Source: Escherichia phage LHE71. Taken from it: a stretch of DNA of 50,158 nt. The position numbers were made by a program, and so were the translations under genes. A model generated the notes under the pieces. The model was not told the DNA's origin and did no database searches. It saw nothing but the letters and a program-made list of their open reading frames with translations. Shown piece after piece: positions 3,347 through 39,718 of this stretch. Numbering within the stretch: position 1 is the first letter of the stretch; each line of letters begins with the position of its first letter. The stretch is taken from the sequence record OP455115; one strand, given 5' to 3'.

Positions 3347-3361
3347 TAGCAATTCGTGTTA
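3347..3361. promoter_or_regulatory. Palindromic intergenic motif instance (TAGCAATTCGTGTTA)
   Basis: Inverted repeat; 22 nt to TAGAAT with TGn extension on the minus strand. Confidence 0.45.
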
Positions 3362-7942: not shown

Positions 7943-7957
7943 TAACAAAAAGTGCTA
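7943..7957. promoter_or_regulatory. Palindromic intergenic motif instance (TAACAAAAAGTGCTA)
   Basis: Inverted repeat; 22 nt to TGgTATAGT then leader TTATCCCATCGACAACGAG on the minus strand. Confidence 0.45.
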
Positions 7958-9285: not shown

Positions 9286-9300
9286 TAGCACGTTTTGCTA
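9286..9300. promoter_or_regulatory. Palindromic intergenic motif instance (TAGCACGTTTTGCTA)
   Basis: Inverted repeat in the control region; no obvious -10 at the usual 22-nt spacing. Confidence 0.35.
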
Positions 9301-9490
9301 AAAATGGAGGTGACTACCGGGCGAACCGGGTAACACTAATTCCTCCCTCTCACAATCATTGCATTCTAAGCAACAATCACATCAACAGTTGCACACCATG
9401 CAACAATCACATTTCATCATTCGCAATCAATCACAATCAAAATTATTCCAGATATTCCAGTATTGATGGAATAATGAGCAACTATTTGAA

Positions 9491-9505
9491 TAGCATTTTT
9501 TGCAA
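9491..9505. promoter_or_regulatory. Palindromic motif of rightward early promoter module
   Basis: TAGCATTTTTTGCAA, then 22 nt, then TATGAT (9528..9533), conserved leader, SD GAGGAAG, ATG at 9568. Confidence 0.5.
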
Positions 9506-9567
9506 AGCATCAGCCAGGTGAATCGGGTATGATTCATCTCATCAACCAATCAGTAGAGGAAGCAGCA

Positions 9568-9693
9568 ATGAGAGTTAAACAGATTTGTAGTCAGTGTGCT
9601 GGTCGTGGTTTTACTCTAGTCCCGTTATTCACTGGAGTCTGGACAATGCAGCGAATCACGTGTCCGGCCTGCAACGGTCAGGGTAAGCGATAA
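9568..9693 (+). CDS. Small zinc-ribbon protein (41 aa) with two CxxCxGxG motifs
   Basis: ORF absent from the supplied track (below its size cutoff); SD GAGGAAG 6 nt upstream; CSQCAGRG and CPACNGQG match the DnaJ-type zinc-finger repeat. Confidence 0.45.
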   Translation: MRVKQICSQCAGRGFTLVPLFTGVWTMQRITCPACNGQGKR

Positions 9694-9716
9694 GGTCAAT
9701 CAGGAGAATGCAACAA

Positions 9717-10423
9717 ATGAAATTAATCTGGTCACTATTTGACGGTTCAGGTCTTGCTGGTCATGAGCTGGCAAAGCAAGGTCACAAGGTGATGTGCTTC
9801 AACTTTGACGGAGCCGATCACGGTGATTACGCAAAGTACAATGCCAGAGTCGAGCATCCGAACATTGAGTATGTGAACGTCTTCATTGATGAGAAGTTCG
9901 AACGTGATGCTATCGCTGGCGTGTACGGAAAGCCGGATTTTATTATGGCCTTCCCGCCGTGCACTGACCTGGCTGTTAGTGCCGCCGCCGCCTCTTTGCC
10001 AGCAAGCGTGAACGTGATCCGTTATTCCAGGAGAAGGCTGTTGCCACCGCAAGGATTGCTGCGAACATTGGCGAGGCGCTTGGTGTTACTTACATCATTG
10101 AGAATCCGGTGAGCGTCCTGTCGTCTGCGTGGAGAAAACCAAATCACTCCTTCAATCCCTGGGAGTATGGCGGCTATCTTCCCGAGAATGACGTGCATCC
10201 CTGGTTCCCGATGTATATTGCGCCGCGAGATGCTTACCCGAAGAAGACTTGTCTGTGGACCTCTGACGATTTTGTCATGCCAAAAAGGAAACCTGTAAGA
10301 CTGCCTGACGGGTACTCTGCACAGCAAAACAAGCTGGGCGGCAAGTCTGCCAAAACGAAGCTGATACGATCCCTGTCGCCGCGTGGATTTTTCAAAGCGA
10401 TCGCAAATAGCACTTTTTGTTAA
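9717..10423 (+). CDS. DNA (cytosine-5)-methyltransferase-like gene interrupted by a -1 frameshift at a GCC repeat
   Basis: N-terminal frame has motif I-like LFDGSGLAG and motif IV-like FPPCTDLAVS; downstream frame has RDPLF and IIENPV (motif V/VI-like); frames switch within 9980..9992. Confidence 0.4.
10408..10422. promoter_or_regulatory. Palindromic motif of promoter module
   Basis: TAGCACTTTTTGTTA, then 22 nt, then CATAAT (10445..10450) and leader TACCTCATCGAAACGAG. Confidence 0.5.
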
Positions 10424-22669: not shown

Positions 22670-23122
22670 ATGAATATGAAACGTATCGCAGAGTCAACTG
22701 GTGAAATCGATAAACGTCACATTAATGGTAACAACGGAACGCGACGCGGTAAAGACAAAAAGCCTCGCCAACGCTGCGGATTCTATATTCACAAAGAAGA
22801 AACACGAGCAGGACTGCGAGCGCGACTTGACGCTCTTATTGAATATTACGGCGGCCCAGCGGCTTGCGCAAAGGCTCTGAAAGTTAGCAACCAGACGGTT
22901 CAAGGGTGGAAGGATCGAAATATGATTTCCTGGCAAGGCGCTGAAGCGGCGCATCGTGCTTATCGCCGACAGGGTTGCAAAGGATTTCGGGCTGCATGGC
23001 TGCGATTCGATCTGAAGTTTGATGGGAACGGCAAGTGCCTTGAGAAGCGCTGCAAAAACAAGAAGTTTATGCGGGTCGTGAAGAAGGAAGATATTGGAAC
23101 GACAAATAGCATTTTTAGTTAA
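22670..23122 (+). CDS. Cro/YdaS-like HTH transcriptional regulator
   Basis: HTH segment YYGGPAACAKALKVSNQTVQGW; SD AGGAGA. Confidence 0.55.
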   Translation: MNMKRIAESTGEIDKRHINGNNGTRRGKDKKPRQRCGFYIHKEETRAGLRARLDALIEYYGGPAACAKALKVSNQTVQGWKDRNMISWQGAEAAHRAYRRQGCKGFRAAWLRFDLKFDGNGKCLEKRCKNKKFMRVVKKEDIGTTNSIFS

Positions 23123-23130
23123 AACAAACG

Positions 23131-23165
23131 ACGCGTAGCGGGTTAACATCCTTCTACGCGTTTTT
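23131..23165 (+). terminator. Candidate terminator
   Basis: Stem ACGCGTAG/CTACGCGT with long loop followed by TTTTTATTT. Confidence 0.35.
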
Positions 23166-39703: not shown

Positions 39704-39718
39704 TGGCACTTTTTGTTA
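39704..39718. promoter_or_regulatory. Palindromic motif instance upstream of the chaperone gene
   Basis: TGGCACTTTTTGTTA about 20 nt upstream of the SD. Confidence 0.4.

Follow-up and report, generated by a model that had tools for sequence, protein, structure and literature searches.

What does the 41-codon open reading frame (ORF) at positions 9568 to 9693 of the genome of Escherichia phage LHE71 (sequence record OP455115) encode, and what could its product do for the phage? We analysed the whole stretch of 50,158 nucleotides, referred to here as the window, and compared the ORF with its counterparts in related phages. We found that the ORF is very probably a real protein-coding gene, judged by its pattern of conservation, and that it is an accessory gene of T1-like coliphages: rare, sporadic and dispensable. 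We are also confident, if slightly less so, that its predicted product is a Cys4 zinc ribbon built like part of DnaJ's cysteine-rich domain. The features discussed are collected in Table 1.

Conservation of a 41-codon reading frame

The ORF starts with an ATG at 9568-9570 and ends with a TAA at 9691-9693, and the GAGG of its Shine-Dalgarno sequence (SD), AGAGGAA, is 8 nt from the ATG. An earlier note on this DNA had described a 41-amino-acid ORF with a strong SD at this site, and that description holds, as does its report of two CxxCxGxG repeats, which span residues C7-G14 and C32-G39 of the product (MRVKQICSQCAGRGFTLVPLFTGVWTMQRITCPACNGQGKR). The segment between these two knuckles is unusually hydrophobic and aromatic. 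A 54-amino-acid reading from an ATG at 9529 opens inside the -10 hexamer of the upstream module and is not conserved in relatives, and we therefore take the 41-amino-acid start as the functional one.

We found that the ORF is conserved in related phages. The window is the genome of a T1-like siphovirus (Tunavirus, Drexlerviridae) whose best matches in a phage collection are 88-93% identical, and 137 phage records, nearly all of them Escherichia or Shigella Tunavirinae, match the 2-kb region around the ORF with 80-93% identity. With tblastn, orthologs were found in the Tunavirus GenBank genomes UP30 (95% identity), S2_02 and SA30RD, and a more distant one in Enterobacter phage Phc of the genus Eclunavirus (57-60% identity). 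Two more Tunavirus-sized contigs, from ENA and Logan, carry the ORF. The Phc ortholog is also a 41-amino-acid ORF (2498-2623 of our locus L007), with its own GGAGG SD and an ATGA overlap with the gene upstream.

Codons were compared across seven loci, the window and six other Drexlerviridae genomes or contigs. Values of pN/pS were 0.09-0.35. Among the six Tunavirus copies, variable columns fell at codon positions 1, 2 and 3 in 3, 5 and 14 cases, respectively. Three copies have a 9-nt in-frame insertion that adds EVS or EVP to the segment F15-T31. The remaining two frames across the ORF are interrupted by stop codons. Against Phc, synonymous sites are saturated (pS ~0.9-1.0), and despite this the cysteines and glycines of both knuckles are invariant across the two genera. 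In all, 18 residues are invariant in the seven orthologs (C7, S8, C10, G12, R13, G14, F15, V18, F21, G23, V24, W25, Q28, C32, C35, N36, G37 and G39). Every ortholog is strongly positively charged, with 6-7 Lys or Arg, 0-1 Asp or Glu and a pI of ~10. The earlier note had named a lack of conservation in related phages as grounds for giving up the gene. We found the opposite, and because the ORF is conserved under purifying selection we consider it a genuine protein-coding gene. In UP30, a 13-nt tandem duplication (AGGGTAAGCGATA; ~795-830 of our locus L004) straddles the stop codon; the coding sequence is unaltered because the TAA sits in the first copy.

These data also bear on whether there is a protein function at all. 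The ORF could have arisen by chance or be decaying, or it could be a leader or upstream ORF whose translation alone matters. It is very short, is missing from ~95% of relatives, occupies a leader position with another gene downstream, and gave a structure model of low confidence. However, the pN/pS values, the excess of changes at third positions and the in-frame indel form the substitution pattern of a constrained protein, and the Cys, Gly and aromatic residues are kept across two genera. None of 200 random sequences generated with a Markov-1 model of the same composition had two CxxCxGxG motifs in one open frame (single motifs averaged 0.2 per 50 kb of six-frame translation), and the downstream gene has an SD of its own. 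Conservation largely refutes the notion of an ORF with no protein function, and we find it hardly credible.

The ORF had been called unannotated. This is correct for UP30, S2_02, SA30RD and Phc, where GenBank leaves it uncalled. It is not correct for the source record, in which an identical protein is listed at NCBI as UYE91813.1, "hypothetical protein [Escherichia phage LHE71]". A literature search found no paper mentioning phage LHE71.

The family is very small. Queried with the ORF product and with the family alignment, a word-indexed collection of 5.8 billion proteins returned two clusters only, and queried with the Phc ortholog it returned no match. We counted 13 distinct protein variants: 11 in the two clusters (formed at 90% identity and representing ~33 contigs), plus those of UP30 and Phc. 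The 11 clustered variants differ from one another only at non-motif positions. Apart from the family itself, an exhaustive HMMER search of 1.84 billion representative sequences found only proteins of low complexity or with a generic CxxCxGxG motif. When contigs from viral, genome and metagenome collections were scanned, the matches were to generic motifs or to the same ENA contig. The PHROGs contain no family for the product, and an Rfam scan of the window gave no match. By these searches the family appears confined to a handful of Drexlerviridae. The family is new; stand-alone DnaJ-type zinc knuckle proteins as such are already known.

Likeness to the DnaJ zinc hairpin

We found that the product resembles the central part of DnaJ's cysteine-rich domain. 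The best Pfam match was PF00684 (DnaJ_CXXCXGXG), with 27.9, 26.2 and 27.6 bits for the window variant, the 44-amino-acid variant of the SA30RD type and the Phc variant, respectively (E=2.9e-6 to 1e-5). The match covers profile positions 16-55 of 65 (16-52 for the window variant), which hold the central two of the four repeats. Matches to NCBIfam DnaJ models fell at model positions 158-201 (161-201 in TIGR02349). In a BLASTP alignment with E. coli K-12 DnaJ (from NC_000913.3), ORF residues 5-39 aligned with DnaJ residues 159-190 at 14 of 35 positions identical, and the four ORF cysteines fell on C161, C164, C183 and C186. In DnaJ these four residues form zinc centre II, with which the ORF cysteines are thus in register. 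Motifs 2-3 of human DNAJA2 and DNAJA3 align over the entire ORF. These results agree with the suggestion in the earlier note that the ORF encodes half of a DnaJ-type zinc finger. Because all four cysteines and the knuckle glycines are invariant, the two knuckles most probably bind one zinc ion.

The likeness lies in two CxxCxGxG knuckles that flank a beta-hairpin. The ORF has two of the four repeats and would form one zinc centre, whereas DnaJ has two interleaved centres. It is a stand-alone protein of 41 residues, without a J domain, G/F region or C-terminal client-binding domains, and its hairpin is 3-6 residues longer than that of DnaJ and much more hydrophobic. TIGR02349 scored 21 bits against a cut-off of 377, and neither the J domain with its HPD motif nor the client-binding domains are present. 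Since most of the identities with DnaJ are borne by the motifs and the Phc ortholog aligns in other registers, the ORF and DnaJ appear to use the same structural building block; the ORF does not appear to be a captured piece of a host dnaJ gene.

A protein of this kind might mimic zinc centre II of DnaJ and engage the host DnaK/DnaJ cycle; it would rival or replace the portion of DnaJ that the contact with DnaK reportedly requires, and would thereby redirect or block the host Hsp70 system. Every variant maps onto the central motif pair of the DnaJ models, and the identity with E. coli DnaJ in register reaches 40% over 35 residues. Zinc centre II is reported to be important for the interaction of DnaJ with DnaK (Linke 2003, as cited in PMC4428491). 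However, 8 of the 14 identities with DnaJ are the motif Cys and Gly residues, and the Phc ortholog does not keep the register. Hydrophobicity is far greater in the phage hairpin (FTLVPLFTGVW) than in the corresponding DnaJ segment (QVQMRQGFFAV), and deletion of the whole DnaJ zinc domain had only mild effects in vitro (PMC4428491). Literature searches gave no evidence that T1-like phages depend on DnaK/DnaJ. We regard such a mimic as quite improbable. A somewhat broader version, in which a lytic phage uses a DnaJ hairpin with one zinc centre as a decoy or inhibitor aimed either at the host's Hsp70 (DnaK/DnaJ) cycle or at one of its defence or core proteins, is only marginally less improbable. 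If it were true, the ORF would represent a new class of takeover or anti-defence effectors, zinc hairpins of ~4.5 kDa whose genes come and go in a dedicated first-cistron slot of the Drexlerviridae.

The two CxxC pairs also raise the notion of a small thiol-disulfide oxidoreductase or redox sensor, as proposed for the DnaJ cysteine-rich domain, for which weak thiol-reductase activity is reported (PMC4428491), and for chloroplast DnaJ-like zinc-finger proteins. However, complete CxxCxGxG knuckles are the hallmark of structural zinc sites. A thioredoxin-like scaffold is missing, 41 residues are too few for a substrate site, and the genomic context gives no support. We give a redox role very little credence.

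Among known proteins, anti-TRAP (RtpA) of Bacillus subtilis (PF15777/NF058604; PDB 3lcz) offers a parallel to the proposed mode of action. It too is a tiny stand-alone protein with DnaJ-type knuckles (53 residues, compared with 41 for the ORF product), and it does nothing but bind another protein and inhibit it, a mode that we propose below for the ORF product as well. The sequence match was weak (E=0.01 with the PDB profile; E ~1e-3 and 15-19 bits against a cut-off of 65 with NCBIfam; E=0.17 with Pfam), and hhalign aligned 15 columns covering one knuckle only. The knuckles are 21 residues apart in the ORF product and ~10 apart in anti-TRAP; the C-terminal oligomerisation helix of anti-TRAP is missing from the ORF, and anti-TRAP is not basic.

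CxxCxGxG modules also occur outside Hsp40 in BSD2/ZnJ2 (PF25436), in DUF5351 and in phage ORFs described as DnaJ-family zinc fingers (AR9/PBS1, Loki gp45), and several of these stand-alone relatives are themselves small phage ORFs. BSD2-type proteins differ in having four motifs and two zinc centres. Our weaker, sub-threshold matches included anti-TRAP, BSD2_CRD, DUF5351 and Q-like PHROGs; the BSD2, DUF5351 and phage zinc-finger families do not match the ORF at threshold, and the Drexlerviridae family forms a tight cluster of its own. The product lacks the tested defining features of the DnaJ/Hsp40, anti-TRAP, Com and Q families, and we therefore do not count it as a member of any of them.

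Table 1. Features at and downstream of the first rightward repeat/-10 module, in window coordinates
Feature	Coordinates	Strand	Basis and remarks
Drexlerviridae direct-repeat element, TAGCATTTTTTGCAA (consensus TAGCACnnnTTGCTA, palindromic TAGCA-N5-TGCTA)	9491..9505	+	Motif scan; oriented with transcription
-10-like hexamer TATGAT, 22 nt after the repeat	9528..9533	+	Same spacing in the modules of the window; TATGAT/TATAGT kept in relatives
Putative 5' leader with conserved CATCAACCAATCAG box and SD AGAGGAA (9555-9561)	9540..9567	+	Near-invariant in relatives, whatever gene follows
Coding sequence, 41 amino acids, probable Cys4 zinc-ribbon mini-protein (= UYE91813.1)	9568..9693	+	ORF scan, orthologs, purifying selection
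First zinc knuckle (putative), CSQCAGRG, C7-G14	9586..9609	+	C7, S8, C10, G12, R13 and G14 invariant in 7 orthologs; aligns with DnaJ C161/C164
Hydrophobic/aromatic beta-hairpin (predicted), FTLVPLFTGVWTMQRIT, F15-T31	9610..9660	+	F15, V18, F21, G23, V24, W25 and Q28 invariant; strands in the AF2 model, low confidence
Second zinc knuckle (putative), CPACNGQG, C32-G39	9661..9684	+	C32, C35, N36, G37 and G39 invariant; aligns with DnaJ C183/C186
Second leader-like repeat (CAATCAG...GCAACAA) with SD AGGAG (9702-9706) for the methylase; right edge of the cassette	9697..9716	+	Imperfect repeat of leader 9547-9570
C5-cytosine DNA methyltransferase, second cistron, with +2 frameshift in the GCC run 9981-9992	9717..10423	+	phrog_757 matches the N-terminal part

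An exchangeable cassette and a proposed role

We found that the ORF lies in a slot whose content differs between phages. In alignments of the window with its relatives, the repeat, the -10-like hexamer, the leader and the SD are conserved and the gene that follows varies. Only 3 of 57 phage records with the promoter and leader continue through the ORF; ~95% are without it. In ISF002 the slot is empty, and the leader SD directly serves the ATG of the DNA methyltransferase (methylase) gene. In LHE71, UP30, SA30RD and the two contigs the slot holds the zinc-ribbon ORF and a second SD, on a cassette of ~150 nt between two imperfect copies of the leader (CAATCAG...GCA.CA.ATG). The arrangement suggests that the cassette is gained and lost by recombination between the leader repeats.

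The slot equivalent to 9568-9716 of the window is a hypervariable accessory slot. In SH2 (230-442 of our locus L003) and phiD2-2 (2022-2234 of L002) it holds an unrelated 70-amino-acid ORF (MEPKFECAVQC..., phrog_16851) that overlaps the start of the methylase.

The genes to the left of 8956 are transcribed leftward, and those from 9568 to ~15055 rightward. The rightward block contains the zinc-ribbon ORF, the C5 DNA methyltransferase gene, several genes for small proteins and a DNA helicase gene. The ORF adjoins the divergent intergenic region and is the first cistron after the first rightward repeat/-10 module. Because the next module is at 10408, at the end of the methylase gene, with no terminator-like site between the modules at 9491 and 10408, the unit that the ORF heads consists of the ORF and the methylase gene. 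Thus the ORF does head a rightward operon, as had been claimed, but that operon contains only one further gene, and this gene is frameshifted. Position and gene content (methylase, small ORFs, helicase) suggest that the ORF is expressed early; literature searches found no transcriptome of a T1-like phage. The first rightward unit of Phc has four cistrons, with the ortholog in last place; the same repeat/-10 module lies upstream of this unit, and a terminator-like hairpin and the next module come after it.

The methylase gene of the window is split into ORFs 9708..10112 and 10109..10423 by a +2 insertion in a GCCGCCGCCGCC run. We judged this against the intact methylases of 234-237 amino acids in UP30, ISF002 and the ENA contig; the gene is either a pseudogene or affected by a sequencing error. 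The difference in reading frame, the conserved TAA and the presence of a second SD rule out that the zinc-ribbon ORF is fused to the methylase or forms its N-terminal domain.

The position of the ORF next to a modification gene invites comparison with phage Mu. Mu Com is a zinc-ribbon translational activator encoded upstream of the mom DNA-modification gene. Like Com, the ORF product is a small basic protein with a Cys4 zinc ribbon, and its gene is directly upstream of a DNA-modification gene. It might therefore be a nucleic-acid-binding zinc-ribbon regulator, comparable to Mu Com, P2 Ogr or the zinc ribbon of lambda Q and, in one version, a Com-like translational activator of the methylase. 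The uniformly very basic product, essentially without acidic residues, fits this notion, and the ORF is directly upstream of a DNA methyltransferase gene at 5 of the 7 loci. There are also weak matches to PHROGs annotated as anti-termination protein Q-like (phrog_127, E=0.0035; phrog_6060, E=0.021), and the CxxCxGxG protein of phage Loki is reported to match lambda Q by HHsearch (PMC5313236).

In contrast to what obligate coupling of the Com kind would imply, most relatives have the methylase behind the same leader without the ORF. Conversely, SA30RD, with an in-frame TGA in its methylase, and S2_02, with an HNH endonuclease in the methylase's place, both have an intact ORF. Purifying selection on the ORF persists despite a frameshifted, truncated or replaced methylase, and also in Phc, where the neighbours are unrelated. 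Because the ORF is genetically independent of the methylase, we consider a dedicated activator of the Com type unlikely. Pfam gave no Com-family match for the product. BLASTP against an approximate lambda Q sequence gave no alignment, and a Q-like protein would have ~200 residues with a DNA-binding body in addition to the zinc ribbon, unlike a 41-residue product with weak PHROG matches. The hairpin of the ORF product is also hydrophobic and not basic. Overall, a nucleic-acid-binding regulator is an unlikely alternative.

The reading that we favour, and to which we give about an even chance, is that the ORF is a translated accessory gene for an early, dispensable, stoichiometric binder of a host or phage macromolecule that presents a zinc-clamped hairpin. 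The ORF would be expressed with the DNA methyltransferase gene, as the first cistron behind the repeat, -10, leader and SD. In its product, zinc would clamp a beta-hairpin of 17-20 residues with an invariant hydrophobic and aromatic ridge (F15, V18, F21, V24 and W25). Soon after infection, the stabilised hairpin would dock on its target and inhibit or redirect it, as the knuckles of anti-TRAP inhibit TRAP. The product is too small for an enzyme or a chaperone and would act stoichiometrically. The gene would be dispensable and strain-specific, like counter-defence or host-adaptation genes, and its patchy distribution would follow from a host- or defence-specific function. The earlier note pointed to host takeover as a frequent role of first early products; for this ORF, an accessory gene that ~95% of the relatives sharing its promoter lack, such a role would be hypothetical.

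Several observations weigh against this reading. The gene neighbourhood points to no partner or target, and the strong positive charge would suit binding to nucleic acid no less than binding to protein. All family matches are under their curated cut-offs, including those of the three variants to PF00684 (gathering threshold, 32.7 bits), and the similarity to DnaJ is mostly in motif residues, with the Phc ortholog aligning in other DnaJ registers. The AF2 model, made from a 3-sequence alignment, places hairpin strands at residues 15-19 and 25-29 between the knuckles with a pLDDT of 58 and no metal. The best match of this model in a Foldseek search of the PDB had E=2.7, and because nothing fell below that value we draw no structural inference from it. 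Translation, zinc binding and timing are read from sequence and position. The same is true of the promoter activity of the 9491 module, which has no -35 element at 16-18 nt and has GGG in place of TGn before the hexamer.

A specialist will not be surprised that the early region of a phage holds a small zinc-ribbon accessory gene, which could be viewed as one more small hypothetical protein with a motif. On the other hand, T1-like phages are common laboratory contaminants and therapy candidates, and a function is known for hardly any of their small non-structural genes. A 41-codon ORF skipped in several GenBank relatives encodes a constrained protein, and the variable slot behind the first rightward expression module, which may be empty or hold this ORF or the unrelated 70-amino-acid ORF, is of the kind in which host-specific takeover or counter-defence genes occur. 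If a target is identified, the product would be among the smallest zinc-stabilised phage effectors known. The ORF is easy to test, with three clean tryptic peptides (VKQICSQCAGR, GFTLVPLFTGVWTMQR and ITCPACNGQGK) and natural "deletion" alleles in relatives.

The repeat/-10 module and the intergenic region

The earlier note had placed the ORF behind a complete promoter module. We found both parts of it, the repeat and the TATGAT hexamer, and they belong to a unit present throughout the family, but the module is not a canonical sigma-70 promoter: a consensus sigma-70 scan made no call there, and the sequence 22 nt from TATGAT is TTGCAA. Transcription of the ORF unit would start at ~9540.

The repeat motif occurs 12 times in the window at up to 3 mismatches, compared with 3.5 expected. 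We found 19 oriented copies (1850-23107, plus 39704); all but the copy at 39704 are in the non-structural half (18 of 19). Examples of modules are those at 7943(-), 10408(+), 10871(+), 13003(+) and 19648(-). In the 19 oriented copies a [TC]AnnnT hexamer is found 22-23 nt past the repeat, compared with a background of 4%, and nearly all 19 modules have a C/A-rich leader, an SD and a start codon 70-83 nt from the start of the repeat. An extended -10 (TGn) is present in 10 of the 19 modules, and a -35 element at normal spacing in none (0/19).

The repeat is known from phage TLS, where its consensus is aaATAGCACnnnTTGnTAAAA and it precedes start codons by ~76 nt, and was also noted for T1, Rtp and Rogue1; proposed roles are a stoperator, an enhancer site or an UP-like element (section on the repeat in PMC11447400). 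The copy at 9491, with TATGAT at +22 and the ATG at +77, has the repeat-to-start geometry of this TLS "DR". As far as that section shows, a fixed spacing of the -10 after the repeat was not described.

With its centre near -42, the palindromic core of the repeat would be placed like a class II activator site. In 11 of the 19 modules a perfect inverted repeat of 5-9 bp holds the -10 hexamer in its loop; its arms are specific to the module, for example AAGGGCATT/AATGCCCTT, GGGATAAC/GTTATCCC and TAAGGTCA/TGACCTTA. Modules with such a stem include those at 3347(-), 3867(-), 6289(-), 7943(-), 10871(+), 11987(+), 12503(+), 13003(+) and 22642(-). The mean stem was 5.6 bp when arms were paired within their own module and 3.9 bp when paired across modules, and 0 of 5000 permutations reached the observed value. 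In orthologous modules of relatives both arms change together (GGGAG/CTCCC, GGGATGACT/AGTCATCCC and GGGAT/ATCCC). We rejected the stem as a conserved feature of the 9491 module: orthologous copies keep repeats of 3-5 bp only, and the 6-bp repeat TGAATC/GATTCA at that module may therefore be due to chance.

The divergent intergenic region is 610 bp long and contains a 13-nt direct repeat (GCAACAATCACAT) at 9370 and 9400. A conserved inverted repeat, TTATTCC (9443-9449) and GGAATAA (9468-9474), is just upstream of the repeat element. Phc has GGAATAAT repeats similar to the intergenic ones. The repeats at 9370-9474 could be operator, pac or origin elements. At 9286-9345 there is an extra copy of the module repeat (TAGCACGTTTTGCTA) that lacks a -10-like hexamer at +22. 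Behind it come arms of the form GGAGG...CCTCC (9306-9310 and 9341-9345), and the entire stretch is conserved in relatives. The copy of the repeat at 23107-23160 has an 8-bp stem (ACGCGTAG/CTACGCGT) and then a T run behind it, which together resemble a terminator hairpin and not a -10 module.

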